In this document: positions 12,294 to 52,448 of the stretch, piece by piece
How the letters are laid out: each line of letters opens with the position of its first letter
How positions within the stretch are numbered: position 1 is the stretch's first letter
Assembly (NCBI GenBank): GCA_963797555.1
Contig: CAWCPV010000002.1
Coordinates: 64,001 to 128,000, forward strand
Reading direction: 5' to 3'
Source: an uncultured Gammaproteobacteria bacterium
GTDB taxonomy: Bacteria > Pseudomonadota > Gammaproteobacteria > CAWCPV01
DNA: 64,000 nucleotides
Notes under the pieces: generated by a model
Seen by the model: the letters and a program-made list of their open reading frames with translations, nothing else
Told to the model about the DNA's origin: nothing
The model's database searches: none
Made by a program: the position numbers and the translations under genes

Positions 12294-14751
12294 ATGAGCC
12301 CGGGCGACAGCCTTCCCCGCCCGGCGGGCCGGGACAAGCCCTTTCCGGCGCGGGTCGCCGTCGCGGTGGCACTGGTGTCCGCGGCCGTTCTCGCGTACGA
12401 GGTACTGCTCACCCGTCTGTTCACCATCATCCAGTGGCACCACTTCGCATACATGATCATCAGCCTGGCACTGCTCGGCTTCGGTGCCAGCGGGACTTTT
12501 CTCTCCTATGCCCAGGGAGCGCTGCTGCAGCGCTTCCGAGCCGCGTTCGCCACCAACGCCGCCTGCTTCGGACTGGGGAGCGTAACGGCCTTCGCGCTCG
12601 CCGAGCGCATCCCGTTCAATCCGCTCGAGCTGTTCTGGGACCTACGCCAGCCTCTCTACCTGCTCGGCGTCTTCGGCTTGCTGAGTGTCCCGTTCTTTTG
12701 CGCCGCCAATGCCATCGGGCTGGCCCTCGCCCGCCTGCGAGGACACATTCCCGCAGTCTATTGTGCGGACTTGGCGGGGGCAGGCGCTGGCGCCATCGGC
12801 AGCCTGACCTTGCTGTTCTGGCTGGCTCCCGACCGTGCGCTGCTCGTGGTCGGGAGTCTCGGGCTGCTCGCCGGGGCACTCGGCGCGCCGGGGCGCCGGG
12901 CGCCAGCCGCGCTGGTGACTGCAGCCCTTTGCCTCCCGGTGGGCTGGCCCGACGCCTGGCTCGGGGTGACCCCGTCCCCCTACAAGCCGCTGAGCGTCGC
13001 ACTCCACGTCAAGGGCGCTCGGGTACTACAGGAACTATCCAGCCCGCTGGGGGTGCTCACCGTGGTGGAGAACGCCGTGGTTCCTCCGCGCCATGCGCCG
13101 GGCCTCAGCCTTCGTAGCCAGGCCGTGCCCCCGGCTCAACTGGAGATATACACCGACGCCGATGCCCCCACGGCCATCAGTCATTTCGACGGGCGCGCGG
13201 AGAGCGTCGCCTATCTCGATGAGCTGACCTCCGCCCTGCCGTACCACCTCGTGCACCGGCCCAAAGTGCTGGTGCTGGGGGCCGGCGGCGGCAGTGACGT
13301 CCTCCAGGCCATCGCGGCCGGTGCGCGGGCGGTCACTGCCGTCGAGATCAACCCCCAAATGGTGCGCTTGGTGCGCAAGGATTACGGCGCCTTCGCCGGC
13401 CACTTGTATGACCGTGACGACGTGCGCGTGGTGGTGAGCGAGGCCCGCACCTTCGTCGAGGGCAGTCGGGAGCGCTTCGATCTGATCCAGCTAGCGCTGG
13501 TGGACTCGTCCGGCGCCGCGGGAGCCGGCCTGTATGCTTTGAACGAGAGCTACATCTACACGGTGGATGCGTTGCGGACCTATGTGGCACATCTGCGGCC
13601 CGGCGGGCTGCTTGCAATCACCCGCTGGCTGAATCTACCGCCGCGCGACTGCGTCAAGCTGTTCGCAACGGCGGCGGAGGCGCTGGGCGGCTCCAGCCCT
13701 GCGCCGGCCGCGGGTCGCCTCGCCCTAGTGCGAAGCTGGCGGACCTGCACGCTGCTGGTCAAGAACGGTCTGCTGCGTGCCGCCGACACCCTCGCGATCC
13801 GGGACTTCTGCCGCACCAGGGGTTTCGACGTCGCGTACTATCCCGGCATCCGCCCGCAGGAGGTCAACCACTATAACCTGCTCCCACAGCCCTACCTCTA
13901 CCAGGCAGCGGTGTCCCTGCTCGGGTCTCGGCGAGACCAGTTCCTCGCGGGGTACAAGTTCGAACGTCAGACCCGCTACCGATAACCGTCCGTATTTCTT
14001 CCACTTCTTCCGCTGGAGCGCATTGCCGGAGCTGATTGAGCTTCCAGCCCGCGGCGGCCTAGCGCTCATGGAGTGGGGCTACGTGGTCCTGGTCGCCACC
14101 CTGGCGCAGGCCCTCCTCCTCGGTGTGGCGCTGATCCTGCTGCCCCTGTGGAGCCGTCGAGTCAGCGCTGCAGGGCATATGCGCTTGGGAGTCGCCAGTT
14201 ACTTCACTACGCTCGGTCTGGCTTTCCTGTTCATGGAGATCAGTTTCATTCAGAGGTTCGTCTTATACCTCGGGGCACCCCTCTACGCGGTCTCCGTCGT
14301 CGTCGCCGGTTTCCTGCTCTTCGCCAGCCTCGGAAGCCTCGGCTCCGTGCACCTCCAAGCGCGTCTGGGGCGCATCTCGGCCATCACCGCCGCCGTTGCC
14401 GCTATCGCCCTGCTGTGCCCCGGCTACCTCGTCCTTTCGCCGGCACTGCTGCACGTGTTGCCGGCGCTCCCGGAGCCGCTCAGGATCGCCGCCGCGCTCG
14501 CGCTCCTCGCGCCGCTCGCCTTCTTCATGGGCATGCCCTTCCCCTTGGGGCTCCAGCGGGTGGCGTGTGCAGCCCCTCCCCTGATCCCGTGGGCTTGGGC
14601 CATCAACGGCTGCGCCTCGGTCGTGGGCGCGGTCGGTGCAACCTGGCTGAGTGTCCACTTCGGATTCGCGGCAGTCGTGCTGCTGGCCGCAGCCCTGTAT
14701 GCCGTAGCAGCGGCCTCCCAGGGGCTGCTGCAACCCGTCCCCGGCGGATAA
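12294..14751 (+). CDS. Multi-TM spermidine-synthase-like SAM-binding membrane protein, split by +1 frameshift near 13963
   Basis: TM bundles flank VLVLGAGGGSD / AVEINP; removing one base from TTCGAACGTC joins ...GYKF to xVRPATDNRPYFF. Confidence 0.8.
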
Positions 14752-14821
14752 CGCTGCTTCGCGAATCGTTCTGGGAACGGGCACACGCGACGCTCGGGCG
14801 GGCACGTCCCGCAGGCGACCG

Positions 14822-15487
14822 CTACAGGGTGTCCCAGCCGGATCTCCGACGCCAGTGCAAGTGTGGCACAAGGACGCCGATCAACGTCCCGAGCAGCAGC
14901 ACCCCGGCCCCCACCAGGAACCAGTCCCGGGCCGTGCGGTCGCGCAGCTTGGCATTCTCCTGTTGCACTGACTGCAGATCCCGTTCCGTGTTGAGCACCT
15001 GCTCCTTCAACGCGCGGTTCTCAGCCTCGATGGTCAGGGCGTTGGCAGCGGTCTCACGGATGCTGGTCAGTCTTTGACTCGCGCGCCGGGTCTCCTCCAC
15101 GGCGTGCTGACGCTGTTTGTCGAGGTCGTTCTTCTGCTGTGTCAGCAGGCTAATCTGCGCTTTCAGTTGATGGTTCTCGATCTGGAGCGCCGCCACCCGC
15201 TGCTCCGCCTGCGCGATGCGCTCAGTGGCGCTCGGCGTGCTCGACAGGAAGCGTGTCAGCAGCCAACCCTCGACCCCGCTCGCCGTGCGGACCCTCGAGT
15301 AACCGTCCGGATCCGTCTCCAGGACCGCCACACGCGTGCCGCTGGGCAACATACGCAGGATATTGTGCTTGATGCTCTTGCCCGAACGGAGCGTGATCTC
15401 CAACTTGTCGCTCACGTAGCGCACGGTGTCCGGGAACCCGAGGCTCGGCCAAAGGAGCAGCAGCAACAGGAAGCCAGAAGTCCTCAC
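14822..15487 (-). CDS. SH3-domain coiled-coil membrane protein (TIGR04211/YgiM-like)
   Basis: Signal peptide, YVSD.L.ITLRSG, EGW, coiled coil, C-terminal WF..GAGV TM. Confidence 0.88.
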   Translation of the reverse strand: MRTSGFLLLLLLWPSLGFPDTVRYVSDKLEITLRSGKSIKHNILRMLPSGTRVAVLETDPDGYSRVRTASGVEGWLLTRFLSSTPSATERIAQAEQRVAALQIENHQLKAQISLLTQQKNDLDKQRQHAVEETRRASQRLTSIRETAANALTIEAENRALKEQVLNTERDLQSVQQENAKLRDRTARDWFLVGAGVLLLGTLIGVLVPHLHWRRRSGWDTL

Positions 15488-15613
15488 TCGTTTGTGCGCG
15501 CCGAAGAGATGTTGGAGTGCAGTAGCCTATTCTATCCACAGCTCTCGGCTGCCATCCATCCTTTATGCGGCAAGAGACGGCATCGCGCAGCCCGACGACC
15601 GGCGCACAGGCAG

Positions 15614-15646
15614 AAAAAGGCCCCGCCGGTCGAGACCGGCGGGGCC
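15614..15646 (-). terminator. Rho-independent terminator of the porin gene
   Basis: GC-rich hairpin GGCCCCGCCGGTC...GACCGGCGGGGCC followed by TTTTT on minus strand. Confidence 0.85.
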
Positions 15647-15681
15647 GAGAGGCAGGTGTTCAGCCCTTTGCGGGTTCTTGT

Positions 15682-16851
15682 CTAAAACGTGTGATCGATG
15701 CCCATCGTCCAGCGACTCTCGTCCTTGCCAAACGGGCCATTCGGTGAGCTTGCCTGCGTGTTGTTGAGGTTGTATGCGGTGTAACCGGCGTAGAGGTCGG
15801 TCCGCTTGCTCAGCCACTGCCTGACACCGAACACCCAGCCCTTGGTGCTGTTCAAAGTGAACGGCTCGCCGGTCGCCACGATCCGGCCCGTCGAGTCGCC
15901 GACCTGGCCGTACTCCAGGACCAGCATCGTGTTGCCGAACTTGTAGCTGCCGCCCACCTCCCAGGTATTGCCGCCGTTGCCGCTGACCACCGGGACAGTC
16001 GGGCTGCCCCCGGCGGGGAAGCGCGCCTCAAACTTGTCGGCGTACCTGGCCTGCGTGATGAGCCCGGCGTCCCACTCGTACTGACCGAACAGAGCGAACT
16101 GCGCGTAGTCGAACTTGCCGCCGATCTTGTACGCGTTCCCCTTGACGCCCTGGAACGCGCCGGTGGAAAGGTTCTCGGCCTGGGGCAGATTGCCGTTGAT
16201 GTAGTCGAAGAAGCCGAGCAGGGGGCCGTTGCTGTAGTGCAGACCGAGGCCGTAGGCGGCGTCGTTCGCAGAGGTCTGATCCAGGCCCCCATAACCGACC
16301 AGCTTCAGGCCCATGAAGTCGGGACTCTCGTAGTTGATGGCTTGGGTCTCGCGACCGCCGAACTTGGTGGCGCCGCGCTGCAGCTCCGACTGGATGCCCG
16401 GGAATTCACGGGCCTGCAGCGAGGTCTCGTACAGCGGGTCGATCGCTTTGCCGCTCGCCTTGTAGCCGGTCGAGAGGGTGCCAAACACCAGCCGTCCGAA
16501 GTTACCCGCCAACCCGACCCACTGGTCCTGGTCGACCAGGGTGTTGGTCTGGCCGGGATACTGCGTGATGGTGGGGTTGATTTCCCACGCGAAGTTGAAG
16601 ATGGCCTTCAGACCATTCCCCAGGTCCTCGCTGCCCTTGAAGCCGAACTTGGACTGATTGCTGGCCATGTAAGTGTTCTGCTGACCGAGGTCGATGGGCG
16701 CATTGTTGTCCCCGTTGATGCTGAGACGCGCCTCACCGAACAGCGTTACATCCGCCTGGGCGGCGCCGGCCCCGAACAGGGCCGCAGCAACTCCGAGCCC
16801 AATCGCGCCGCGCCGGACTGCTACATAGCGATTGTCACTTTGATTTGTCAT
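15682..16851 (-). CDS. Gram-negative general porin (Porin_4 type)
   Basis: Signal peptide AQA-DVTLFG, SKFGFKGSEDLGNGLKAIF, LSKRTDLYA, C-terminal Phe. Confidence 0.92.
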   Translation of the reverse strand: MTNQSDNRYVAVRRGAIGLGVAAALFGAGAAQADVTLFGEARLSINGDNNAPIDLGQQNTYMASNQSKFGFKGSEDLGNGLKAIFNFAWEINPTITQYPGQTNTLVDQDQWVGLAGNFGRLVFGTLSTGYKASGKAIDPLYETSLQAREFPGIQSELQRGATKFGGRETQAINYESPDFMGLKLVGYGGLDQTSANDAAYGLGLHYSNGPLLGFFDYINGNLPQAENLSTGAFQGVKGNAYKIGGKFDYAQFALFGQYEWDAGLITQARYADKFEARFPAGGSPTVPVVSGNGGNTWEVGGSYKFGNTMLVLEYGQVGDSTGRIVATGEPFTLNSTKGWVFGVRQWLSKRTDLYAGYTAYNLNNTQASSPNGPFGKDESRWTMGIDHTF

Positions 16852-17072: not shown

Positions 17073-17165
17073 ATGACGAGCGCGTGACAAGCCGCTGACA
17101 ACCGACAGACTGACCGCACACGTTGTCTGGCCGCCGCTGCACACATACCTTCATGGAACTGTCAC
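17073..17165. promoter_or_regulatory. In-phase 11-bp Pho-box-like repeats between porin and DUF5132 gene
   Basis: Minus strand GTCAG-N6-GTCAC-N6-GTCAT (17099-17073); plus strand TTCAT-GGAACT-GTCAC (17150-17165); all positions congruent mod 11. Confidence 0.55.
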
Positions 17166-17215
17166 ACGGATGTGGTTTCATGCTCGCTTGTTCTGCCGAC
17201 CAGCTCAGGCGCGCC

Positions 17216-17506
17216 ATGCCATCGGTCGAAAGCCTCACCAAAGACAGCGGGTTGACTGGCCTCGCCCTGGGTATCGGCACCGCTCTTGCCGTCGCCTGGG
17301 TGCTGCCCGCAATCGGGGCGGTCGCCCGACCGGTCGCAAAGGCGGCCATCAAGTCCGTCCTCTCGACCTATGCCAAGGTACTGGAAGGCGCGGCCGAGCT
17401 GGGTGAGTCCCTCGATGACTTGGTGGCAGAAGCGCGCGCCGAGATGGCGTCGGGATCGAATCCGCCGGCCTCGGCGCACGGACCGTCCGCACGTGCGCAA
17501 TCCTAG
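17216..17506 (+). CDS. DUF5132-like small membrane protein (FezA-like)
   Basis: GLALGIG hydrophobic GxxxG segment, RPVAKAAIK, E.LDDLVAEARAE. Confidence 0.8.
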   Translation: MPSVESLTKDSGLTGLALGIGTALAVAWVLPAIGAVARPVAKAAIKSVLSTYAKVLEGAAELGESLDDLVAEARAEMASGSNPPASAHGPSARAQS

Positions 17507-19032
17507 CAGCCTGTCGGACTTGAGCTTCCCAAGACCATCCCAAACCGTTTCAGTGTTGCTTTGGCACCAAAATGGGCGATTTAGGGCCGGAATTTGGCCA
17601 TTTTTCCGCCAACTTCCCGGTTACAGACGCAATGCGGCCATGCGTTTTAGATTCCAGGCGAGACACACCAGCGTCCATTCGGCTTGGACGTTTTGCAGGC
17701 CACGCAGCAGGAATTGGCGAAATCCCATCACCGACTTGATGATACCGAAGACCGGCTCCACGGTTTGCTTGCGTAGGGCATAGTCCGCTTTGCCTTGGCG
17801 TGTCTTGAGCCTGTGCTTCATCGTCTCCAGCGGCCCCGCCTTTTCCGGCAGTGGCGGCGGCTCGCTGAAGCGTTCCGTCCAATGGGGATGATGCCCCTCC
17901 CGGCCTACCGCGATGAGCGGTTGGATCTCAGCCTGCTGGCAAGCGGCAACGTTGTGCTCGCTGAAGTAACCGGCGTCGGCCAGAAGCTTCTCGGGCTGAT
18001 TCAGCCCCTCGGGCAGGGCTTGGAGTTTTCCGACCATCGGCTCGACCTGCTCTTTGTCGTTGGCCGCTTGGGTGACGTGGGCGAGAACCACCAGCATCGT
18101 CTCGCTGTCCACCAGCGCTTGGGCGTTGTAGCTCTGCTCGAAGCCGCCGCCCGCCACGGGCATGATGCGGGATTCTTGGTCGGTCAGGTTGATCTGGTCT
18201 TCGGCACGTGGCCCGGGCTGGGGCGGCTTCGGCTCCTTGCCAGCGGGTTTCTTGCCGCTTGCCGCGGCCTTGGCCGCACGGGCGGCCACCTTGGCTTCAT
18301 AGTCGGCCTGCTCGCGCGCGAAACGTTCCTGGGCGCGTGCCTCGATCTTGGCCTTGGCCTCGGCGATGGCCGCAAGACGGTCCTGCCGGCGCTGCAGTTC
18401 TTCCGGAAGGCTCATCCCGTCCGCCACCGCCGTTTGGTCAGCTTGTTCGGCCAGTGCGAGCAGCTCTTGGACCTCGGCCTTGAGTTGGGCCTCGATCTGC
18501 TCGGCGTGGCCGTAAGACAAGGCACTGTGCCGGCTGGCGTTGGCGTGCAGCTTGGTGCCGTCCAGGCTGACCGTGCCGAAGCGGCTGATCTGGTTCTCTC
18601 GTGCCACTTGCAGGACCTGCACAAAGGCCGCTTCGAATTGCTTGCCAAAGCGCCGCCGAAAACTCGCCAGGGTGTCGTGGTCGGGATGCTGGTTACAGGC
18701 GATGAACCGAAAGGCCAGCGAATCGTAGGTCGCCCGCTCGATCTTGCGGCTGGAGAAGCTGCCCGTGGCATAACCGTATATCAGCAGCGACAGCAGCAGC
18801 GCCGGGTGGTAGGCCGCGCTTCCGTTGCCGGCATAGGCGCGCTCCAGCTCGCCAAGGGCCAGTCCTTCGACCACCTCCACTACGTAGCGCGCCAGGTGGG
18901 CCTCGGGCAGCCAGTCCTGCACCGACGGCGGCAACAGAAAGTCCGTGTCACGGTCAATCGGGCGAAAGCGGCTCATCTCAAAACTCCTCGGGGCAGTGGC
19001 CGCTATTGTACAGGGCTAAGTCCGACAGGCTG
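17507..19032 (-). mobile_element. IS1182-family element A
   Basis: IRs CAGCCTGTCGGACTT / AAGTCCGACAGGCTG, CTAG direct repeats at 17503-17506 and 19033-19036. Confidence 0.92.
17621..18976 (-). CDS. IS1182-family transposase
   Basis: SSRKIE, PDHDTL, LDGTK..ANAS, ADAGY, RKQTVEPVFG..K. Confidence 0.93.
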   Translation of the reverse strand: MSRFRPIDRDTDFLLPPSVQDWLPEAHLARYVVEVVEGLALGELERAYAGNGSAAYHPALLLSLLIYGYATGSFSSRKIERATYDSLAFRFIACNQHPDHDTLASFRRRFGKQFEAAFVQVLQVARENQISRFGTVSLDGTKLHANASRHSALSYGHAEQIEAQLKAEVQELLALAEQADQTAVADGMSLPEELQRRQDRLAAIAEAKAKIEARAQERFAREQADYEAKVAARAAKAAASGKKPAGKEPKPPQPGPRAEDQINLTDQESRIMPVAGGGFEQSYNAQALVDSETMLVVLAHVTQAANDKEQVEPMVGKLQALPEGLNQPEKLLADAGYFSEHNVAACQQAEIQPLIAVGREGHHPHWTERFSEPPPLPEKAGPLETMKHRLKTRQGKADYALRKQTVEPVFGIIKSVMGFRQFLLRGLQNVQAEWTLVCLAWNLKRMAALRL

Positions 19033-19194
19033 CTAGGACGCCAAAGCCCGAGCGTTGCGGTGCGGCGTGCCCGTGGGGCGCCGGCTGACGCCGATGTCAG
19101 ATAGCAGCCACCGAGGGCAACCATGACCGATCCAGAGCATTTCGCCGCCGCTGGGAAGCGCACCGGTTCAACCAAGAAGACGAGGAGACCAGGA

Positions 19195-19842
19195 ATGGGT
19201 ACGGACTCTACGAAGAGTGAAGAGCTCACGAGGCCGTCACCGGCCGAAGCGATCCAGCCCGTCAGCAAGGCAGGCACTACCGTCAAGGAAGGGATCGTGG
19301 GAAGTCTGAAGGGCATCGACGAGATCGAGGCGCAGATCGTCAGCTTGGTGAGGAACACGGTTTCGTATGCCGTACGGGCCACCGGCGGGATCGCATCCGA
19401 AACGCTGAGCATTACCAAGGACGTGGTGGTCGGTGCGCTGTCCGCCACCGAGGAGGTAGGTGCCGGCCTTACCCTCAGCACCAAGAGCGTCGCCAAGGGC
19501 ATCGTGATGGGGGTAAGCAACGTCGGTGGGGACGTCATCGCCGTGGCCGCCGAGATTGTGAAGGCGGCGGTCAGAGGCGCTTCGGAAGTCGGCGCGGACG
19601 TGGGCATGGTCGCCAAACGGGCGGTCGACGGCGTGGTGGAGGCCGTCACCGAAACCGGCGGGAACGTCGCCGATGTGGCGACGGCGGCAGCGAGCGGCGC
19701 GGTGGAGGCAGCCGCCGCCATCGGTAACACCGCCGTCCGTGCGGTCAGAGACATGACCCTCGGGATCGCAGAGGGCATCAAGGAGGTGGCTGGCGCCATC
19801 CTGCCCAAACCCCGGCAGGGGCCGCCCAATCAATCGGGCTGA
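19195..19842 (+). CDS. Hypothetical Ala/Val/Gly-rich protein with 22-residue repeats
   Basis: Codon usage like neighbours, AGGAG upstream; clear 22-aa periodicity. Confidence 0.75.
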   Translation: MGTDSTKSEELTRPSPAEAIQPVSKAGTTVKEGIVGSLKGIDEIEAQIVSLVRNTVSYAVRATGGIASETLSITKDVVVGALSATEEVGAGLTLSTKSVAKGIVMGVSNVGGDVIAVAAEIVKAAVRGASEVGADVGMVAKRAVDGVVEAVTETGGNVADVATAAASGAVEAAAAIGNTAVRAVRDMTLGIAEGIKEVAGAILPKPRQGPPNQSG

Positions 19843-20099: not shown

Positions 20100-20483
20100 A
20101 TGACAGCCTACATCCATCATGTTCCCGGCAGGCTGCGGGTGCGCTCTGCACAGATCAAGGGTAATCCGCATCGTGCGGCCGCCGTGCAGCGCACACTGCT
20201 GCAGACCGCCGGGCTGTTGTCCGCGGAGGTGAGCACGACCACCGGCAGCGTGGTCATCCATTACGACCCGCAGCGGGTCGATTCCGACACTCTTCTGGGC
20301 CCTTTCAAGGATGCGGGATGCGTGTCCCCCGACGCCAGCCTAAACACCTCCACCGGGCGTATCGAGTCGGCAGCGGCGAACGAACCCTACGCCTGGGGCC
20401 TGATCGGCAAGGCCGTCGCCGGCGTCGTCCTGGAGAAGCTGGTCGAGCATTCCGCCACTGCGCTGATCGGGGCCATCATCTAG
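20100..20483 (+). CDS. HMA2-domain protein (FezC/fez accessory-like)
   Basis: YIHHVPGRLRVR, TTGSVVIHYDP, C-terminal hydrophobic GKAVAG...LIGAII. Confidence 0.82.
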   Translation: MTAYIHHVPGRLRVRSAQIKGNPHRAAAVQRTLLQTAGLLSAEVSTTTGSVVIHYDPQRVDSDTLLGPFKDAGCVSPDASLNTSTGRIESAAANEPYAWGLIGKAVAGVVLEKLVEHSATALIGAII

Positions 20484-20966
20484 TGTAGTGCTTCATTCTG
20501 TTTAGAACTTAAACGTGCGTTGGCGCGGATGACCTTCTGCAGGATGTCCTTAGCCTTGGCGGTCCAGATGAAGGGTTTGGGATTGGCGTTGTGGGCATCG
20601 ACATAGCGGTTGATGGCAGGGATCAACTCGGGGACGCTTCGAAACACGCCACGGCGCAACCGATCCACAGTCAGGTCGCGGAAGAATCGCTCGACCATGT
20701 TCAACCAGGATGCTGAGGTGGGCGTGAAATGGATGTGGAAACGCGGGTGTTTTCCCAGCCATTTCTGAACGTTGGGATGTTTGTGGGTGGCGTAGTTGTC
20801 GCAGACCAAGTGCAGTTCCTTGTCCTTGGGCGTCTCGCGGTCGATTTGGCGCAGGAAGGTGAGCCACTCCGTGTGGCGATGGTGCGGCTCGCAGCGGGCA
20901 ATCACGGAACCCTCCAAGGTGTTCAGGGCAGCAAACAGTGTTGTGGTGCCATGGCGCTTGTAGTCA
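20483..20966 (-). mobile_element. Truncated IS630 (3' third of the element at 33297-34457)
   Basis: Near-identical to 33297-33780, same end TAGTGTAGTGCTT; breaks off at TAGTCA 20966. Confidence 0.92.
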
Positions 20967-21067
20967 ACACAGATGCATCCCACCCACCGGCGCTGACTCC
21001 GCCCCTTGAGCGGCGAAGGCCTCGCTCCTCGCCGATTTCCCCAAGGGTTGCGAGCCCTTTCGGCGCC

Positions 21068-22255
21068 TCAGCCGAGCCTTCCTACCCTATCGGTCATTTC
21101 CCAGGGCAGACCGATGTCCATTCGTCCCATATGTCCGTACGTCGCGAGCCTGCTGTAGAAACGCCCCTTGAAAGCTGCGGGCAGCCTGCGCAAATTGAAG
21201 GTCCGGACGATCCCGGCGGGCCGCAGGTCGAAGTTCCGCTCGACCAGGGCACCGATCTCGCCGTCCGGAACGCGACCGGTGCCGAAGGTCTCCACCTGGA
21301 TGCTCACTGGCCGGGACAGGCCGACCGTGTAGCTGAGCTGCAGCTCGCACTCCTGTGCGAGCCCCGCCGCCACGATATTCTTGGCCGCATGGCGCGCGGC
21401 ATAGGCGCCCACCCGGTCGATGCGCGTGGGGTCCTTCCCGCTCAGAGCCGCCCCGCTATGCCGGGAGTACTCGCCGTAAGTGTCGATGGCGTTCTTGCGC
21501 CCGGTCAGCCCCGAATGCACCGTCGGACCACCCACGAGCAGCGGACCCCCGGGGTTTACGAATAGGCGCGTGCTGACATCCGGGCGTAACTCTTCGTCGA
21601 CGAAAGCGGGCTTCACCACCAACTCGATCAGGTCGTCCCGGAGCCTGGTCGGCGAGGGGGTGTCCGCGCCGTACTGGCTGGCCACGAGGGTGATGCTGTG
21701 GATGCGCGAGGGCCTGCGCCCGCGGAACTCCACGCCCACCTGAGTCTTGCCGTCCGGCGCCAAGTACTCCAGGAGACCCTTGAGACGCACGGCCGCGAGC
21801 TGCCTGGCGAGCTTGTGGGCCAGCCAGATCGGCAGGGGTACGAGGGCGCTGGTCTGGGTGCAGGCGAAGCCGAACACGGTAACCTGATTACGGGCCGGTA
21901 CCGCTTCAATTTCGTCCTCGGACAGCTCGGACTCATGTCCCCGCAGCTTTGGCCCGGCCGGCATCTCGTTGAAGCTCGTCATGATGCTGCAGGTCCCGGG
22001 GTTGAAGTCCTCACGGTCGTAGCCCACCTGGCGGATGACTTGGCGGGCGACCTCCGGAATGTCGACGCTCGCCCCCGAGTTGAAACGCGCCGCGATGAAC
22101 AGGATGCCCGTCGAGACGGCACACTCCACGCGGATCAACGAGAACGGGTCCTGCTCCAGAAAGCGGTCGACCACTGCGTCGCTCACTTGGTCGCACAGCT
22201 TGTCCGGGTGACCCTCGGTCACCGATTCCGAGGTGAACATGAAGTCGTCTCTCAT
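21068..22255 (-). CDS. metK: Divergent methionine adenosyltransferase (MetK) paralogue
   Basis: FTSESVTEGHPDK, DGK, GLTGRK, SGKD, YGHMG; several substrate-pocket residues non-canonical; ATG overlaps ATPase stop. Confidence 0.85.
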   Translation of the reverse strand: MRDDFMFTSESVTEGHPDKLCDQVSDAVVDRFLEQDPFSLIRVECAVSTGILFIAARFNSGASVDIPEVARQVIRQVGYDREDFNPGTCSIMTSFNEMPAGPKLRGHESELSEDEIEAVPARNQVTVFGFACTQTSALVPLPIWLAHKLARQLAAVRLKGLLEYLAPDGKTQVGVEFRGRRPSRIHSITLVASQYGADTPSPTRLRDDLIELVVKPAFVDEELRPDVSTRLFVNPGGPLLVGGPTVHSGLTGRKNAIDTYGEYSRHSGAALSGKDPTRIDRVGAYAARHAAKNIVAAGLAQECELQLSYTVGLSRPVSIQVETFGTGRVPDGEIGALVERNFDLRPAGIVRTFNLRRLPAAFKGRFYSRLATYGHMGRMDIGLPWEMTDRVGRLG

Positions 22256-25200
22256 GGGCTTTCCTCCCGATGTGCAGCCGTCTCCAAACTCACGCGCGGT
22301 GCAGCCCGCGACGCTGTACCTGCAGGCCACGCCTTGGTGGTTTCGTTGATCAGCAGAGGCGCGAGTGCCGTGCCCGCAACGACCAGGCCGTCCAAGAGCC
22401 CAATGGGCGCACTCCCCAGGAATTGCCTCAAGCCGGGTAACACCGCCGACAGGAACTGTAGTCCGAGGGATCCTGCCATCGCCCCCTTCAGATAAGGGTT
22501 CGCGGGAAGCGGCCGCGGATCGAACAAGCTATGCGTCTCGGAACGGCAGCTGATGGCATGCAGGAGTTGCGCCGTGGTCAGGCTCATGAACGCCATCGTA
22601 TTGGCCCTAGCCCCCAGACCATAGCGGTAGACCCCGTAGCCGTATGCAGCGAGCGCGCCCGCGGTGAGCGTGGAGGACTCGAACCCGATGCGCCCGAAAT
22701 CGCCCCAGCCCACGATGGGCTGCCTCGGATCGCGCGGTGGACGGCGCAGCACGTCCGGCTCCGGCGCCTCCATGGCCAGGGCGAGCCCAGGAAAAATGTC
22801 CGTGACCAGATTGATCCACAACAACTGCATCGGTGTAAGGGGTTGGCCCGCCCCTGCAGCGATGGCACCCAGCATGACCATGATCTCGCTCAGGTTGGTG
22901 GCCAGAAGGAAGTGGATGGACTTGCGGATGTTCCCATAGATGGTGCGACCGCGACTCACCGCCGTCACCATGGTGGCGAGATCGTCTTCCTCCAGCACCA
23001 CGTCGGCCACGGTGCGCGCGACATCGGTCCCGGCCCCTCCCATAGCGATTCCGATGTCGGCGGCCTTGAGGGCTGGCCCATCATTGATGCCATCTCCGGT
23101 CATGGCCACCACCTGGCCCGTCCGCTGCAGCGCCTGAACGATCTGGAGCTTGTGCGCGGGGCTCACGCGGGCAAATACGTGGACCCGCTCGGCAATGGCC
23201 GCCAGAACCTCCGAGTCGATGCGCTCTAGGTGGGTGGAGTCCAGGATTTCCAACTGGCCGCCAGCGCTGAGGTCCAGGGCTTTGCCGATCGCATAGGCCG
23301 TGGGGCTCTGATCTCCGGTGATCATCACTGTATCGATCCCGGCGTCGTGGAAGAGCCCGATCAAGTCCCGGACACCGGGCCGGATAGGGTCAGCCATCCC
23401 GACCAATCCTACCCACGTGAGCCCCTGGGACAGCTCGCCCCCCTCTGGAAGATCACTATAGGCCATCCCGAGAACGCGCAGGGCATCGCCCGCCATGCGG
23501 TCATTTTCGATACGGATGGTCGACCTCAGCTCCTCGCTCAGCGGATGCCGCTCCCCATCCCGAAAGATCCAGTCGCAGAGGCCCAGCACCTCCGACGGAC
23601 TGCCCTTGACCGCAACCCGCACCTGCCCGTCTGGCAGGGCATGGTGGCTCGCCATGTAGTTACGATTCTCGGCGCGCTGCTCCAGTCTGAGCACGGGAAA
23701 GCGGCGTCTGAGCGGGGGCACGTCGACCCCGGCATCCATCGCCATGCGCAGCAAGGCCGCCTCCGTCGGCGAGCCTTTGAAGGGATCGCCCGCGCCCGGT
23801 GCGTTCGGCACCGCCTCGTTGCACAGCACGGATACCTCCGCGAGACGCATCAGGTCTGGATGCTCCGACGGCGGGACGGCTGTTCCGTCGGCATCCCAGA
23901 AACATCCCTGCGACACCCCCAAGCGCACACCGTCGGTAGCCACCCGGACCACGGCCATGCGGTTCAGAGTCAGTGTGCCCGTCTTGTCCAGACACAACAC
24001 CTGCACCGCACCCAAGGTCTCGACGGCATCGAGCTGGCGGATCAGGACCTTGTGCCGTCGCATGTCCCGGATGCCGATGGCCAGAGTGGTGGTAGCGACG
24101 GTCGGCAGCCCCTCAGGCACCGCCGCCACCGCCAAGGAGATGGCGGTCTTGAGCATCTGCAGCAGGCCATAGCCGCGCAACAGTCCGAGGACGAATACGA
24201 CGCCGCAGACCGCCCCGCTCAGCACAATGACCCGCGTGCCCAATTGGCTGAGCTGCCGTTGCATCGGAGTCTCAGGGGACCTCGCTTCGCCCACGAGGGT
24301 CTGAATCGTACCGAGCTCCGTAAAACCGCCGGTGCCGACGACGACGGCGAGCCCACTCCCCCCGGTAACGGTCGTCCCCATGTACACCATATTCACCCGG
24401 TCACCAAGGGGTAGCTCGTCCACGCTCAGTGCCGCGGTGCTCTTGCTGACCGGCATGCTCTCACCGGTGAGCGGGGACTCGTCGAGCGTGAGCCAGCGTG
24501 CCTCGACGAGCCGGGCATCCGCTGCCACGTAGCTGCCTGGCGATAGGCTCAAGATGTCACCGACCACCACGTTCTCACTGCCGATCTCTCGTAGGCGGTT
24601 CTCCCGCAAGACATGGACCGAGGGTTGCACCACGCTGGCCAGGGCATCGATAGTGCGTTCCGCCTGCCGCTCCGTGATAAAGCCGATGGTAGCGTTGATG
24701 ATCACGACCCCCATGATGACCACCGCATCCGCGAAGCCACCCGTCGCTGCTGAGATGACGGCGGAGGCGCTGAGCAGCGCCACCGGCAGGCTGTTGAGCT
24801 GGCCGAGCAACATGCTCAGCGCCGAACGTCCGGCGGGCTGGGGCAATACGTTCGGGCCATAGGCAGCGAGCCGGTTGGCCACGGCCCCATTGGAGAGGCC
24901 CGGGTGTCCTGGGCTATCGACGACCGCCAGGACCTCCGGGGTGTCGAGACGGTGCCATAATCTTTGCGCCTGAGTCTGGTAACCCCCGAGCAAGCGCCGG
25001 GCGTGGTGCGAGTGGACATTGCTGCCCCCGCGTTGCGCGGCGCTGCGACGGCTCGGCGAGGTGCCGTCGCCGGCCCTTTGGAGCTGCTGCAGGGCCGTGC
25101 GCGAAGGGAGAAGCCGTTCGATGGCGAGGACGATGGTCGGCAGGTCCGTCGCCTCGCCGAAGGTAACGAGCACGTTCCCGGTCAGCGTGCTGGCCCAGAC

Positions 25201-25323
25201 CCCGGTAACGCCCGAAAGCCGGCGCACCGCGGATTCCAGGAGGGCCCGCACATGCGCGCCGCGGTGAAGCCCATGGACGCGCAAACGCGCCCGCCCGGGG
25301 ACCGCGGTATGGATCGGACGCAC
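22252..25323 (-). CDS. P2A-type cation-transporting P-type ATPase with N-terminal HMA2 domain (start uncertain; ORF open to 25527)
   Basis: HTAVPGRARLRV...TGNVLV N-terminus; TGES, AAVPEGLP, DKTGTLT, TGDGINDGPAL, QLLWINLVTD. Confidence 0.9.
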   Translation of the reverse strand: MRPIHTAVPGRARLRVHGLHRGAHVRALLESAVRRLSGVTGVWASTLTGNVLVTFGEATDLPTIVLAIERLLPSRTALQQLQRAGDGTSPSRRSAAQRGGSNVHSHHARRLLGGYQTQAQRLWHRLDTPEVLAVVDSPGHPGLSNGAVANRLAAYGPNVLPQPAGRSALSMLLGQLNSLPVALLSASAVISAATGGFADAVVIMGVVIINATIGFITERQAERTIDALASVVQPSVHVLRENRLREIGSENVVVGDILSLSPGSYVAADARLVEARWLTLDESPLTGESMPVSKSTAALSVDELPLGDRVNMVYMGTTVTGGSGLAVVVGTGGFTELGTIQTLVGEARSPETPMQRQLSQLGTRVIVLSGAVCGVVFVLGLLRGYGLLQMLKTAISLAVAAVPEGLPTVATTTLAIGIRDMRRHKVLIRQLDAVETLGAVQVLCLDKTGTLTLNRMAVVRVATDGVRLGVSQGCFWDADGTAVPPSEHPDLMRLAEVSVLCNEAVPNAPGAGDPFKGSPTEAALLRMAMDAGVDVPPLRRRFPVLRLEQRAENRNYMASHHALPDGQVRVAVKGSPSEVLGLCDWIFRDGERHPLSEELRSTIRIENDRMAGDALRVLGMAYSDLPEGGELSQGLTWVGLVGMADPIRPGVRDLIGLFHDAGIDTVMITGDQSPTAYAIGKALDLSAGGQLEILDSTHLERIDSEVLAAIAERVHVFARVSPAHKLQIVQALQRTGQVVAMTGDGINDGPALKAADIGIAMGGAGTDVARTVADVVLEEDDLATMVTAVSRGRTIYGNIRKSIHFLLATNLSEIMVMLGAIAAGAGQPLTPMQLLWINLVTDIFPGLALAMEAPEPDVLRRPPRDPRQPIVGWGDFGRIGFESSTLTAGALAAYGYGVYRYGLGARANTMAFMSLTTAQLLHAISCRSETHSLFDPRPLPANPYLKGAMAGSLGLQFLSAVLPGLRQFLGSAPIGLLDGLVVAGTALAPLLINETTKAWPAGTASRAAPRVSLETAAHREESP

Positions 25324-25482
25324 GGCGGCACCCTCTTCTGCGGCAGACGACAATGCCCGGGCCCTTCCAGCGGGTGCAGACCTATTCAGTCCTAGCTCAG
25401 TTACCTCGATGGTCGCAGGCGCGACGCGCGCAAACCAACCGCACGCATCTAATGCGAGCCCGTCGAGGAAACCGTGCATGAT

Positions 25483-25509
25483 GTGGCGCAGATGTTTCAT
25501 AATGATGAC
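25483..25509 (-). promoter_or_regulatory. Triple Pho-box-like repeat facing ATPase-metK operon
   Basis: Minus strand GTCAT-CATTAT-GAAAC-ATCTGC-GCCAC, 11-bp period. Confidence 0.5.
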
Positions 25510-25542
25510 TGGCCAAAATCCAGTCAAATTTAGAGGTGGAAC

Positions 25543-25827
25543 ATGGCACTGTTCGACGATGCATTGAAGAGCTGGGGGGTGCCCACCCTGTTGGGCGTCG
25601 GTGTGGTGATCGCCATCCCCGTTGTGCTGCCGCTGGTCGGCGCTGCACTGCGGCCCGTTGCCAAGGCAGCGATAAAGGGCTATCTCGCCTTCAGCGACGC
25701 GGCCAGCGAATACGTGGCGGGTGCGGCCGAGGAGTTGAGCGATCTAGTCGCCGAGGTCAAAGCCGAGCGAGCGGGCGTCGTTGCCGCCCCGTCTGCGGCA
25801 TCTGGGGCCGGGGCATCCGGGGAGTGA
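25543..25827 (+). CDS. DUF5132-like small membrane protein, second paralogue
   Basis: LLGVGVVI, RPVAKAAIKG, EELSDLVAEVKAE; GAGGT RBS. Confidence 0.85.
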   Translation: MALFDDALKSWGVPTLLGVGVVIAIPVVLPLVGAALRPVAKAAIKGYLAFSDAASEYVAGAAEELSDLVAEVKAERAGVVAAPSAASGAGASGE

Positions 25828-25877
25828 CCGGCCGAACTCCCTCCTGCGGGAGCGTCGCACCTTCGGGCAACTCTTCC

Positions 25878-27743
25878 ATGAGACTTCCGGCCTTGCGCGT
25901 GGCCCACGCTCTACCGGGGCGAGTGCGCCTCAAGGTTCCCGCCCTCAAGGGTAACGGGGATCTCGTGCAGGCCGTGTGCGAACAACTGGAGACTGTCGAC
26001 GCCGTCCTGGAAGTGCGCGCGAGCCCGCTCACCGGAAGCCTGCTGGTCCGCTACGACACCTCGCGAATTCCGTCTCTAGGAGTCTGTCGGACTTAAGGTA
26101 GAAACGCGGGTGTTGCAACGCCCCAAGGGGGGAATCTTGACCATGTGGCTCAGGTATGGGTGAGAAGCTATCTTTTTTGCGTGGCAAGACCCTTCACGTG
26201 CCTTCTTTTCACCCGTTCAGGGCATGCATCCGCTTCAGATTCCACCCAAGGCATACTAAAGCCCATTCACTTCGGACTGCGTCTAAGCCGCGAAGCAGAA
26301 ATTGCCTGAACCCTTGCACGTGTTTGAGGATACCGAAGACGGTTTCCACGGAAGATTTGCGCTTGGCGTAAAGTGCCTTACCTTCCTTGGTTTGCAGGCG
26401 GTGGTGCATCGCCTGTACGGGTGTGGGATTGCGAGGGGGTTTAGGGTCTTCGGCGAAGCGCGTCTGTAAGGGAACATTGTGCTTCTCGCGTTTTTCCGGG
26501 ATGAGCGGCGCGATGCGAGCGTTTTTGCACCGCTGAACGTTGGCCTCGCTGAAGTAGCCGGTGTCGGCGAGGAGGGATTCGCCCTGACCCAGCGCCTCGG
26601 GCAACTGGGCAATGTTCTCTAACGCCGGCGCAATCTCCTGTTTGTCATTGGGGTGCTGGGTGACGTGGTGCTCCACGATGAGATGCGTCTCGACATCCAC
26701 CCCGGCCTGCACGTTGTAGGCCTGTTCGAACCCTCCACTGGAGGTGGGCATGATGCGTGATTCTTCATCCGTCAGATTGACTTGGTCCTTGGCCTGCGGG
26801 CCAGGTGTCGGAGGACTCGGCGCCTTGCCCCGAGCCTTCTTGCCGGTGTGTTTCTCATAGACCTCGCGCTTGGCCTGCTTCTGTTCGAACTCCGCCTGCT
26901 CGCGCTCAAAACGCGCCTGCGCCCGGGTCCGGATCTCCTCTTTCGCCTGGGCAATCGCCGCCAGTCGCTCTTCGCGACGCTTGAGTCGGCGGGAATATCC
27001 ATCTCCTCCGCCAGTGAGCTCCGGTCGGCCTGCTCGGCAAAGCGCATCAGGGCTTGCACTTCCTCCTGAAGCTGCGCCTCGAGCCGGTTCGCGTACTCCC
27101 AACTCAGCGCCTTATGCTTGCTGGCGTTTGCTTTGACCTTGCTCCCATCCAGCGCAATCGTGCCCAGCTTCACCAGCCCCATCTCTGCCGCCACCAGCAG
27201 AATCTCGACAAACAGCCCCTCCAGCTCCTTCAGAAACCGCCTGCGGAATTGCGCGATGGTGTCATGGTCCGGGTGCGTGTTGGCACAGATATACCGAAAC
27301 GCGATCGAATCATGGGTCGCCTTCTCCAGCTTGCGACTGGAAAACACCCCCGTGGCATAGCCGTAGAACAGCAACGCCACTAACATCGCCGGGTGGTAGG
27401 GCTTCGACCCCTTACCCCCGTACACCGCCGACAGATGCCTCAGCTCCAACTGCTCCACAATCTCCACCACAAATCGAGCCAAGTGCCCTTCCGGGAGATA
27501 GTCCTGCACGCAAGGCGGGAAAATATACGGGGTATCGCGGTCTATCGGGATGAATTCAACAGCCATCTTGCTCCCCAGGCGGTGGCCCGCTACAGTGCGC
27601 CTATTCTACCCCCGAGTCGGCTCCAAGTCCGACAGCCTCTAGGCGCCTTTCATAAGCTGCTCGAGCCCATCCACGGGCTGTTTCCGGGTGCCCAGGATCT
27701 GGGCGCTGCCGCCGCGCAACAGGCGGACTCCACGTCCCGCTGA
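25878..27743 (+). pseudogene. HMA2-domain gene interrupted by IS1182-B
   Basis: VAHALPGRVRLKV...TGSLLVRYD; removing the IS rejoins IPSL-GAFHKLLEP...SR* in frame. Confidence 0.8.
26080..27639 (-). mobile_element. IS1182-family element B; transposase 26209-27566 frameshifted near 26985
   Basis: IRs GAGTCTGTCGGACTT / AAGTCCGACAGCCTC at a (C)TAG target; SSRKLE, PDHDTI, LDGSK, ADTGY motifs in two frames. Confidence 0.9.
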
Positions 27744-28217: not shown

Positions 28218-29027
28218 ATGAAACCGTTAGAGCTTCGGTCTGTGTGGATATCGGATGTGCATCTCGGTCTACGAGCATGCAAGGCCGAGTTTCTCCTGGA
28301 CTTCTTGCACAACGTGAGGTCCGAGTATCTGTACCTCGTGGGGGACATCATCGACTTCTGGACCCTGCGCAGCGGCTGGTACTGGCCCCAAATGCACAGC
28401 GACGTGTTGCGGGCGGTCCTGCACCGGGCCCAGAACGGTACGCATGTGGTCTACGTGCCCGGCAATCATGATGAGCTTTTCCGAGAATATGCCGGGACGA
28501 TCTTCGGGGGCGTCCAGGTGCGGTCCGAGGCGGTCCACGAGACGGCCGACGGCCGTAAGTTTCTAATCATTCACGGCGACGAGTTCGACTACGTCGTCAA
28601 GCACAACCGCACCGTGGCCCTGATCGGCAGCGGCGCATACGAGCTTCTGCTGAGCGCCAACCGTTGGGTGAACGCGGCGCGGCGCAGGCTCGGGCTGCCT
28701 TACTGGTCGCTTGCCGCTTACCTCAAGCACAAGGTGAAAAACGCGGTCAACTACATCAGTAATTTTGAGCATGCTCTGGTGCACGAGGCACGCAAGCGCA
28801 GGCTCGACGGCGTCATCTGTGGGCATATCCACAAGGCCGCCATCCAGCAGATCAACGGTGTCCTCTACTGCGACGGCGATTGGGTGGAAAGCTGTACGGC
28901 CCTGGTCGAGCACCAGAACGGACGCCTGGAGGTGATCCACTGGGCCGATGAAAGCGTGTTCCTGCTGGCGGAGGGCGAGGAACAACGGTCAGCGTCTATC
29001 CCCGTACACGTGGCTCGCGTCTCTTGA
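28218..29027 (+). CDS. PlcP-like metallophosphoesterase (LpxH-like family; phospholipase C)
   Basis: WISDVHLG, LVGDIID, WYWPQ.H.DV, PGNHDE, HGD.FD, GHIH, GDWVES. Confidence 0.82.
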   Translation: MKPLELRSVWISDVHLGLRACKAEFLLDFLHNVRSEYLYLVGDIIDFWTLRSGWYWPQMHSDVLRAVLHRAQNGTHVVYVPGNHDELFREYAGTIFGGVQVRSEAVHETADGRKFLIIHGDEFDYVVKHNRTVALIGSGAYELLLSANRWVNAARRRLGLPYWSLAAYLKHKVKNAVNYISNFEHALVHEARKRRLDGVICGHIHKAAIQQINGVLYCDGDWVESCTALVEHQNGRLEVIHWADESVFLLAEGEEQRSASIPVHVARVS

Positions 29028-29121
29028 GAGCGCCTGCCCCGCCTCATGCTTGTTCGTGGGTGCTGCGACGCTTACCGGCCACTGCTCACTCGATGATCCG
29101 AAAGCCATAGGAGATAACGGA

Positions 29122-29850
29122 GTGACGAAGCCTATGAGAATGCTCCGAGAGCCAGTGCAGGCTGCCTTCAGTCTGAGCCCGGCCCTGCTGAGCGACGTTC
29201 TGTACCATGCGAAGCCCTTGGGCCACAATGAGCAGCCCGACAATCTAAACCTCGGGTTCGGCTTTCTGTATTACGGCTTGGTCCGCGCCCTGCGCCCGGC
29301 ACATGTCCTGGTGATAGGCTCGGGCTTCGGATTCAGCGTCGTGTGCCTTGCCCTGGGCCTGAAGGACAATGCAAAAGGATGCCTGAGCTTCGTAGATCCC
29401 TCCTATTCGGTGTTCAAGAATGGACCGCTCCACACCATGGGCGGAAGGGGGCAGTGGGACGATCCTCCGCGGGTACGTGATCACTTCGCGCGTTTCGGAG
29501 TAGACGACCGGGTTGTCCATTACAAGCTGAGGAGTGACGAGTTCTTCCCGCAGTATGAAGCGCTGGACTTGGCCGCCATCGACATCGCCTTCATCGACGG
29601 CAATCATGCCTACGCCAACGTCAAGTACGACTTCCTTCAGGTGCTGCATCGCGCCCACAAGAACAGCTACGTCTTGCTTCACGACAGCAACATCTACATC
29701 CGCGAGATGGTGCACCACGCCGGCGTGAAACGCTGGCTCAAGTTTCTGAAGCGCGACAGGGACTGCTTCGAGGTGCTGGATTTCCCGTTCGCTTCCGGGG
29801 TGGCCGTCGTGCGTATCTTGCAGGACGGGGTATGGACCCCGCCGCAATAG
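29122..29850 (+). CDS. Class I SAM-dependent methyltransferase (Methyltransf_24-like)
   Basis: VLVIGSGFGFS, FVDP, IDIAFIDGNH.Y, LLHDS. Confidence 0.8.
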   Translation: MTKPMRMLREPVQAAFSLSPALLSDVLYHAKPLGHNEQPDNLNLGFGFLYYGLVRALRPAHVLVIGSGFGFSVVCLALGLKDNAKGCLSFVDPSYSVFKNGPLHTMGGRGQWDDPPRVRDHFARFGVDDRVVHYKLRSDEFFPQYEALDLAAIDIAFIDGNHAYANVKYDFLQVLHRAHKNSYVLLHDSNIYIREMVHHAGVKRWLKFLKRDRDCFEVLDFPFASGVAVVRILQDGVWTPPQ

Positions 29851-52344: not shown

Positions 52345-52448
52345 ATTACAACTGCGTTTGCCGACGAGGCCACGCCCGTCTTCGGACGGGTCAACGAACG
52401 GGTGATAGCTGCGTCCCCACACTCAAGCGTAACCGAACGAAGCCCACA

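Follow-up and report, generated by a model that had tools for sequence, protein, structure and literature searches.

We have found that a metK-like gene of an uncultured Gammaproteobacteria bacterium (assembly GCA_963797555.1) belongs to a single-origin, multi-phylum sister family of MetK, the bacterial methionine adenosyltransferase (MAT), and that it is co-inherited with a calcium-type P2 ATPase. The gene occupies positions 21068..22255 on the minus strand of the 64,000-nt stretch analysed here (contig CAWCPV010000002.1, positions 64,001 to 128,000; 'the window' below). As judged by alignment, the protein keeps the whole triphosphate/Mg2+/K+ site of MetK and carries a rebuilt methionine pocket, with the net charge changed from −2 to +3. 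Because the phosphate and metal half of the site is frozen, the methionine half is now a cationic pocket, the nucleoside contacts are relaxed and the gene is coupled to the pump gene, the protein very probably makes no S-adenosylmethionine (SAM) and has taken up a new function tied to the pump.

The open reading frame (ORF) extends from 21068 to 22330 on the minus strand, and the likely start is the ATG at 22255 (N-terminus MRDDFMFTSESVTEGHPDK...), which gives an intact frame of 395 aa. All three S-AdoMet_synt domains of Pfam are present (N-terminal, central and C-terminal, with E of 1.7e-32, 5.2e-30 and 7.4e-55), and the NCBIfam equivalog model for metK, TIGR01034, scores the protein at 366.1 bits against a cut-off of 309.4. 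This score explains why members of the clade are named MAT in databases; it is no evidence of function. Among solved structures the protein matches bacterial MATs best (7r3b, E 6.6e-97; E. coli 1fug/1rg9, E 7.8e-90). The AlphaFold2 model, made from a 36-row alignment, has a mean pLDDT (predicted local distance difference test) of 88.1 and a pTM (predicted template modelling score) of 0.89, with low confidence at residues 255-268 (the active-site loop) and roughly 101-110 (the gating loop). Foldseek matches the model to solved MATs with TM 0.86-0.94, and the three-domain MAT fold is evident. In comparison with bacterial MetK (EC 2.5.1.6; TIGR01034; PF00438, PF02772, PF02773; 1FUG, 1RG9) the protein has the same fold, about 40-43% identity and the same triphosphate/Mg2+/K+ ligands. 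It is a MAT by fold and ancestry; by the residues that define the methionine site it is no MetK.

Active-site residues were compared in an alignment of the query with E. coli K-12 MetK (taken from the genome record), the other MetK homologue of the same genome and 119 close relatives with 66-84% identity to the query; residues carry the E. coli MetK numbers of the literature, in which Met1 is omitted. The available parts of PMC1282579 and PMC3853416 describe the E. coli site as follows: the amino group of methionine is held by D238 and E55, its carboxylate by Q98 and K269, and I102 touches its side chain; F230 stacks the adenine, whose amino group is bound by the carbonyl of R229. According to the available part of PMC3853416, D163 and D238 bind the ribose hydroxyls and H14 acts as the acid catalyst in SAM formation. 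The roles of E55, D238, Q98, K269 and F230 that an earlier note on this DNA had given as established, made from the sequence alone, agree with these sources.

The metal and triphosphate residues listed as retained in that note (H14, D16, E42, D163/K165, R244/K245, K265 and D271) are all present in the record-based alignment, and K17 is kept as well. Among the relatives, H14, D16, K17, E42, K245, K265 and D271 are conserved in 119/119, R244 and D163 in 118 each (D163 with one gap) and K165 in 112, so that the ligands of triphosphate, Mg2+ and K+ (H14, D16, K17, E42, K165, R244, K245, K265, D271) are all found in the query and each in 112-119 of the 119 relatives.

The methionine side is different. 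The reported replacements of G53-G54-E55 by A-A-R, of G115-A-G-D118-Q-G120 by P-A-R-N-Q-V, of R229-F230 by P-L, of D238 by H and of K269 by R were all confirmed. The gating loop has changed, as claimed, but the proposed reading of Q98-SPDI as EMPAG is one residue off: Q98-S-P-D-I102 aligns with M-P-A-G-P, and an insertion in the loop makes this part of the alignment ambiguous. As a result the methionine ligands E55, Q98, I102, D238 and K269 are R, M, P, H and R in the query, the GAGDQG motif with its D118 is PARNQV, and the place of the aromatic adenine-stacking residue F230 is taken by Leu.

These are substitutions of a family rather than of one copy. Among the 119 relatives we find E55R and D238H in 119, D118N in 118, K269R in 116 (the other three have H), G117K/R in 115, R229P in 112 and Q98L/M in 109; five further changes (T43C, G253E, M254Y, G258S and F262L) occur in 119/119 each. 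The family pattern, set against bacterial MetK, is E55R, Q98M/L, a variable position 102, D238H, K269R, and P-A/V-K/R-N-Q-V in place of GAGDQG. At position 230 the Leu of the query is a minority state (F in 104/119, L in 13/119). Fixation of one set of substitutions in 119 relatives of 66-84% identity is far beyond chance. In work by Taylor and Markham (J Biol Chem, 1999), D118N and D238N each reportedly cut SAM synthesis ~1000-fold and tripolyphosphatase activity <35-fold; the natural D118N and D238H presumably mirror such laboratory mutants, which lose SAM synthesis ~1000-fold with most of the tripolyphosphatase kept.

To place the gene among MetK homologues we searched 1.84 billion cluster representatives, which gave 18409 matches at E up to 0.001. 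An alignment of 180 sequences combined those listed representatives that have 350-460 aa with the MetK homologues of loci L004-L076 and L086-L089, and also with E. coli MetK, the canonical copy of the genome and the query; eight rows with gaps at signature positions were dropped, and a FastTree phylogeny was computed for the remaining 172. By residue 238 the rows divide into 92 with D238 (canonical), 74 with H238 (variant) and six with another residue. One branch set with support 99 holds 73 of the 74 H238 rows plus one non-H238 row, and a single H238 row is found outside. The query lies inside starred sets of 48, 63 and 74 rows (supports 96, 95 and 99), in which H238 is present in 48, 63 and 73 rows. 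The question of whether E55R and D238H mark a conserved clade is thereby answered: both occur in all the close relatives, and the H238 rows make one well-supported branch.

The D238H switch distinguishes variant from canonical rows at 100% vs 100%, and K269R, G258S and V270I are the other universal switches. The signature of the H238 clade consists of H238 (74/74), R269 (73/74) and R/H/K55 (70/74), and the query has it (R55, H238, R269). In the 92 canonical rows E55 is conserved in 88, Q98 in 89, I102 in 85, and D238 and K269 in all 92. At I102, G115, A116 and G117 the canonical rows are constrained, whereas the variant rows vary more freely. The summed charge at positions 55, 98, 117, 118, 238 and 269, counted with His = 0, has a mean of −1.93 in canonical rows vs +2.38 in variant rows, and is +3 in the query and −2 in E. 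coli MetK.

Invariant in both groups are 51 positions, every phosphate and metal ligand among them. Within the variant rows H14, D16 and K17 are found in 74, R244, K245 and K265 in 73 and D163 in 71. K165 is present in 61/74 variant rows vs 92/92 canonical ones, with Q, T, S, V or E in 12/74; position 230 is F in 40/74 variant rows vs F, W or Y in 92/92 canonical rows. By these conservation patterns the adenine platform is relaxed across the H238 family, and nucleoside contacts are looser than phosphate contacts.

The variant is an extra copy beside a housekeeping metK. The genome has a second MetK homologue (G000:C3:439137-440267), 43% identical to the query and equal to E. coli MetK at 22/22 tabulated signature positions, and this is the canonical gene that the earlier note had expected elsewhere in the genome. 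In the other variant-bearing genomes a second match at 44-50% identity was seen in 5/5, one of them only as a contig-end fragment. Among genome contigs we collected 61 loci with a MetK-like gene at >=51% identity (at least 51%), distributed over Nitrospirota (21), Pseudomonadota (13), Thermodesulfobacteriota (9), Cyanobacteriota (5), Myxococcota (3), Methylomirabilota (2), Planctomycetota (1) and Gemmatimonadota (1), with six loci left without assignment. Cultured hosts of an orthologue include Rivularia sp. UHCC 0363, Plectonema cf. radiosum LEGE 06105 and Thermodesulfatator autotrophicus.

The partner of the MetK-like gene is the ORF immediately upstream (22252..25527, minus strand; 1091 aa). 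Pfam detects in it Cation_ATPase_N, E1-E2_ATPase, Hydrolase and Cation_ATPase_C domains as well as an N-terminal HMA_2 domain at residues 72-136, and together with the solved relatives this identifies a P2-type (SERCA/SPCA/LMCA1-like) cation ATPase. The true start is probably downstream of 25527, as relatives align from about residue 48-69. The best NCBIfam models are those of PMR1-type and SERCA-type calcium ATPases, both under their equivalog cut-offs, and the top matches among solved structures are human SPCA1 (8iwp, E 2.7e-147) and Listeria LMCA1. The alignment contains the segments PEGLP (M4), ATNLSEI (M5) and WINLVTD (M6); all 36 family members compared have E472, N878, E881, N906 and D910, which correspond to E309, N768, E771, N796 and D800 of SERCA1a. 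HMA_2 is the CoBaHMA domain, which has an HMA-like fold and a conserved basic patch proposed, in the accessible text of bioRxiv 10.1101/2024.07.07.602159 and PMC8890360, to bind anionic partners.

The pump stop and the MetK-like start overlap by 4 nt (ATGA, 22252-22255). Pump sequence is directly upstream on the same strand in 60/61 genome loci, and the exception (L033) has only 97 nt of upstream DNA. The pump ORF is complete (>=950 aa, that is, at least 950) in 44/61; in the others it is cut by contig ends, frameshifts or deletions (e.g. L054, L061, L066). Near canonical metK the pump was found in 0/11 genome loci. A metagenome scan seeded with distant H238 members gave 80 loci, 40 with H238, 31 with D238 and nine too short to classify. 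Where at least 600 nt of upstream sequence was available, the pump was directly upstream in 34/35 H238 loci (exception L118) and in 0/27 D238 loci; the pump-linked loci include L091 and L092, from a subclade only 47% identical to the query. The loci obtained from the scan do not extend to the most distant H238 clusters (P0137, P0138, P0142, P0150, P0220 and P0244). The variant thus differs from bacterial MetK in being a second copy (six genomes checked) behind a P2-type ATPase.

A 4-nt overlap of pump stop and MetK-like start is seen in 32/59 evaluable loci, and the gap is <=30 nt in 48/59. Pairwise identities of the two proteins over 36 loci are strongly correlated (Mantel r 0.925, reached by 0/2000 permutations), with the MetK-like protein more conserved than the pump (mean 0.64 vs 0.54). 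The MetK-like gene is co-inherited with a CoBaHMA-headed calcium-type P2 ATPase and is translationally coupled to it in most loci. This conserved partner is absent from the earlier note, which looked instead to a transferase and a decarboxylase in the neighbourhood. The genome of the window has one MetK-like gene and one CoBaHMA pump, and no second copy of the module was seen in it.

What might the protein do beside the pump? The reading that we favour, the second of the two alternatives offered in the earlier note (a phosphate-releasing (poly)phosphatase), is that of a specialised partner of the pump that would bind and hydrolyse tripolyphosphate (PPPi) or short polyphosphate. We put it forward tentatively, from sequence comparison, and at somewhat less than an even chance. 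The second MAT half-reaction, hydrolysis of tripolyphosphate, would be kept and specialised, perhaps with an extension to longer chains. A triphosphate chain with its metal would occupy the conserved site, further phosphates or another anionic group could be accommodated in the new cationic pocket (R55, K/R117, H238, R269), and the protein might handle, for instance, the phosphate counter-ion of the divalent cation transported by the pump. The phosphate-related neighbours seen in 4/16 annotated loci count in favour of this reading.

Several observations weigh against the hydrolase reading. H14 is present in every member, and the near clade keeps K165 in 112/119 and F230 in 104/119; in MetK mutagenesis these three residues reportedly serve adenosyl transfer more than PPPi hydrolysis, and a protein that keeps them may still cleave the C5'-O5' bond. 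Enzymes of polyphosphate metabolism (Ppx, PPK1) adjoin the gene in only 1/16 annotated loci. Control by phosphate starvation was not confirmed: the E. coli-type Pho box CTGTCATN4CTGTCAT with <=3 mismatches has three matches in the window vs 3.35 expected, and upstream of the gene for the DUF5132 protein, a recurring neighbour described below, one site at 11/14 matches was seen in 27 loci vs 0.85 expected.

A different pattern, TGTNACN5TGTNAC, chosen post hoc, occurs in 11/27 of these upstream regions vs 1.19 expected, mostly in closely related Nitrospirota. We do not call it a Pho box, as it is a palindromic site coming mostly from these close relatives. The conserved site is near-palindromic (TGTTACAACTTTGTGAC) and lies some 80-250 nt before the DUF5132 gene in loci L005, L007, L008, L009, L011, L034, L035, L040 and L063; the window has one 9/10 match to it at 17084 on the minus strand, just upstream of the first DUF5132 gene.

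Another reading, which we consider unlikely, makes the protein a non-catalytic regulatory subunit in which the MAT fold serves as a sensor for ATP, PPPi, polyphosphate or some other anion and controls gating of the pump or of its CoBaHMA head. Such a role would fit the stop/start overlap (ATGA or GTGA) in 32/59 loci, an arrangement typical of subunits made in a fixed ratio, and also the strong co-divergence of the two proteins and the higher conservation of the MetK-like one. Yet the residues for metal-assisted phosphoanhydride chemistry are invariant down to ~40% identity, which is more than binding usually needs. Fusions of the two proteins speak little for a fixed complex either: among the 100 longer proteins listed, only three (P0272, P0273, P0327) join pump and MetK pieces, each is single-member and lacks parts of both genes, and they are probably products of deletion or frameshift. 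A complex prediction for two MetK-like copies with pump residues 64-190 (36-row alignments) returned 'no answer' with a score of 0.00, which speaks neither for nor against a complex.

Rather improbable, in our estimate, is the idea put first in the earlier note, that the enzyme is still an adenosyltransferase, but for a different and more anionic substrate. The nucleophile attacking C5' of ATP might be, for example, a deaminated thioether acid, sulfide, sulfite or selenide, and a SAM analogue or a 5'-substituted adenosine would result. In keeping with such an enzyme, H14, the acid that catalyses SAM formation (PMC3853416, available part), is retained in 74/74 variant rows, D163 in 71/74, and K165 and F230 in 112 and 104 of the 119 near relatives, and the replacement of the acidic ligands of the methionine amino group by R and H is as expected for a substrate with an anion there. 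On the other hand, D238, which is also a ribose-hydroxyl ligand, is His in every member; the adenine-stacking aromatic residue is lost in many subclades (F in 40/74) and is Leu in the query; and K165 has become Q, T, S, V or E in 12/74 rows. Nor does any consumer enzyme accompany the gene in a conserved manner, the sole constant neighbour being an ion pump with intact cation-site residues.

The transferase and decarboxylase named as candidate consumers, whose presence near the gene would suit this reading, deserve a separate comment. They are a Methyltransf_24 protein (28948-29850, plus strand) and a phosphatidylserine (PS)-decarboxylase-like protein (29858-30526, plus), and the pair lies beyond the pump, the DUF5132 and CoBaHMA genes and the insertion sequence (IS) element 26209-27566. 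Homologues of the pair were found near the MetK-like gene in only 3/61 loci, so the link fails as a core feature, and we rejected it; at most the pair is an occasional accessory. In the three loci (L015, L022, L053) it recurs beside the module at 54-63% identity. The adjoining metallophosphoesterase gene (28218-29027, plus) recurs in 0/61. The 28218-30526 row may be an accessory for lipid head groups.

An ordinary SAM synthetase isozyme, such as a stress-induced second MetK, is what NCBI and JGI annotation makes of the clade members ('methionine adenosyltransferase' or 'S-adenosylmethionine synthetase' in the sources), in keeping with the TIGR01034 score of 366 vs 309 bits. We regard this as very improbable, in line with the doubt of the earlier note that this is a normal SAM synthetase: E55, Q98, D118, D238 and K269, fixed in 88-92/92 canonical rows, are all replaced here, and the MetK-like gene was never the sole MetK in the six genomes checked. 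A decaying duplicate with privately drifted substitutions, for which only the three IS elements inserted around the locus in this genome would speak, has next to no standing, being refuted by the shared signature, the tree and the clade comparison: the 395-aa frame is intact, the substitutions are present in 119/119 relatives, and the protein is more conserved than its pump partner.

MAT is among life's most conserved enzymes and is treated as a one-function family. The clade described here is large and spans eight or more phyla; its members have lost the methionine half of the site, while the phosphate half has stayed frozen and the gene is tied to an ion pump. It would be a clear case of neofunctionalisation of the MAT fold and would offer a way into an uncharacterised pump module. 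Metabolic reconstructions (for Nitrospirota, Methylomirabilota, Desulfobacterota, cyanobacteria and others) may count a false SAM synthetase, since TIGR01034 scores the clade above its cut-off and public records name its members methionine adenosyltransferase. A literature search gave no report of the MetK paralogue or of its linkage to the pump; the paper defining CoBaHMA (Gaschignard et al. 2024, doi 10.1002/prot.26668) and supplementary material were beyond its reach.

The pump and the MetK-like gene are parts of a wider module. With neighbours annotated by Pfam in 16 diverse loci, the recurring order is a DUF5132 gene (~95 aa), a CoBaHMA gene (~160 aa), a repeat-protein gene (220-250 aa), the pump gene and the MetK-like gene, followed on the opposite strand by a gene for a 123-aa CoBaHMA protein. 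Homologues of the window's own DUF5132, repeat and small CoBaHMA proteins occur in 39, 35 and 36 of the 61 variant loci, respectively, and in 0/11 canonical loci. Other genes around the 16 annotated loci are less regular: phosphate-related neighbours (PstS-like, PsiE, PhoX, Ppx+PPK1) were seen in 4/16, and genes for lipid head groups and for Ca/Mg/Mn transporters are scattered.

The window holds every recurring component, with the order rearranged and broken by IS elements. The small CoBaHMA protein (20100..20483, plus strand; 127 aa, motif HHVPGRLRV, Pfam HMA_2 E 4.2e-10) is encoded convergently with the MetK-like gene, and its homologues elsewhere are often directly downstream on the opposite strand. 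The repeat protein (19123..19842, plus; 239 aa) is Gly/Ala/Val-rich with helical repeats, has no Pfam hit and is 50-65% identical to the product of the ~220-250-aa gene that elsewhere lies just upstream of the pump. The first DUF5132 gene is at 17123..17506 (plus; Pfam E 1.9e-9, with homology by tblastn spanning 17243-17470). A second one, at 25543..25827 (plus; 94 aa), is divergent from the pump gene and was detected in a tblastn search in which the L005 DUF5132 protein served as the probe (49% identity). Next to it is a CoBaHMA gene of ~72 aa (25878..26096, plus; HMA_2 E 2.7e-14, residues 120-179 of the frame 25536-26096). This gene is probably truncated, since it ends just before an IS element; its relatives have ~160 aa and cover the full 154-position profile.

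IS or transposase genes in the window are all on the minus strand (17621-18976, 20480-20983, 26209-27566, 33294-34379 and 39443-40396). Three of them lie within the pump module or on its border, and they seem to have shuffled its order and cut the CoBaHMA gene 25878-26096. One is a DDE_3 transposase fragment (20480..20983; Pfam DDE_3 profile positions 31-145 of 146) between the MetK-like and small CoBaHMA genes; it is outside the system and marks the rearrangement.

Two known systems resemble the module. With the neighbourhood of ccyA (calcyanin) in Microcystis aeruginosa PCC 7806 it has CoBaHMA (PF19991) and DUF5132 in common, as far as described in the accessible text of bioRxiv 10.1101/2024.07.07.602159 and of Benzerara et al. 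2022 (PMC8890360). No calcyanin/GlyZip gene was seen among the window ORFs or in the 16 Pfam-scanned loci, where no dedicated search was made, and the accessible text of the two papers has no mention of a MetK homologue. With the fez clusters of ferrosomes (FezB; FezC, an HMA domain with two transmembrane segments; FezA), as presented in the available text of bioRxiv 10.1101/2020.01.10.902569, the module shares a P-type ATPase whose N-terminus is rich in Arg, small proteins that combine HMA with membrane segments and bear an RxR motif, and further small proteins of hydrophobic character. Here the motif takes the form PGRxR and occurs both in the head of the pump and in the small CoBaHMA proteins. 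The pumps differ in type: ours is of the P2 calcium type and lacks the P1B-6 signature, whereas FezB is a P1B-6 iron pump. Moreover, the fez clusters are organelle gene clusters, whereas the present module is known from genes alone; that text, in its available part, contains no adenosyl, MetK, calcium or phosphate.

A far-reaching and distinctly improbable proposal can also be made. The MetK-like enzyme, the pump and the CoBaHMA, DUF5132 and repeat proteins would build or service a membrane-bounded storage body of calcium-(poly)phosphate or calcium carbonate, a calcium counterpart of the ferrosome, and the rebuilt MAT site would do chemistry new for the fold, perhaps ATP + H2O -> adenosine + PPPi or the processing of short polyphosphate as counter-ion of the pumped cation.

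Some further observations were made on the module and its surroundings. In the decayed loci L054, L061 and L066 either gene is in pieces or the two form pump-MetK-like hybrids. A Myxococcota locus (L024:3352-7998, plus strand) has a pump ORF of 1548 aa with ~500 extra N-terminal residues before the CoBaHMA domain. Two more copies of the repeat protein, 50-58% identical to relatives elsewhere, are on contig C2 of G000 (44720-45268, plus; 52403-53044, minus), 11-20 kb before the window.

The IS and transposase genes of the window are of the DDE_Tnp_1 type with DUF772 and of the DDE_3 type (the fragment and a full copy), and one IS (26209-27566) is split into the overlapping ORFs 26209-27102 and 26772-27566. 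At 12294-13985 (plus strand) a 563-aa protein has a weak spermidine-synthase/methyltransferase-like core at residues 320-415, below curated cut-offs, and is followed by two ORFs that have no family (14073-15077 and 15074-15685). At 36728-38473 (minus strand) a 581-aa protein combines a glutaminase domain with STAS and cyclic-nucleotide-binding domains.

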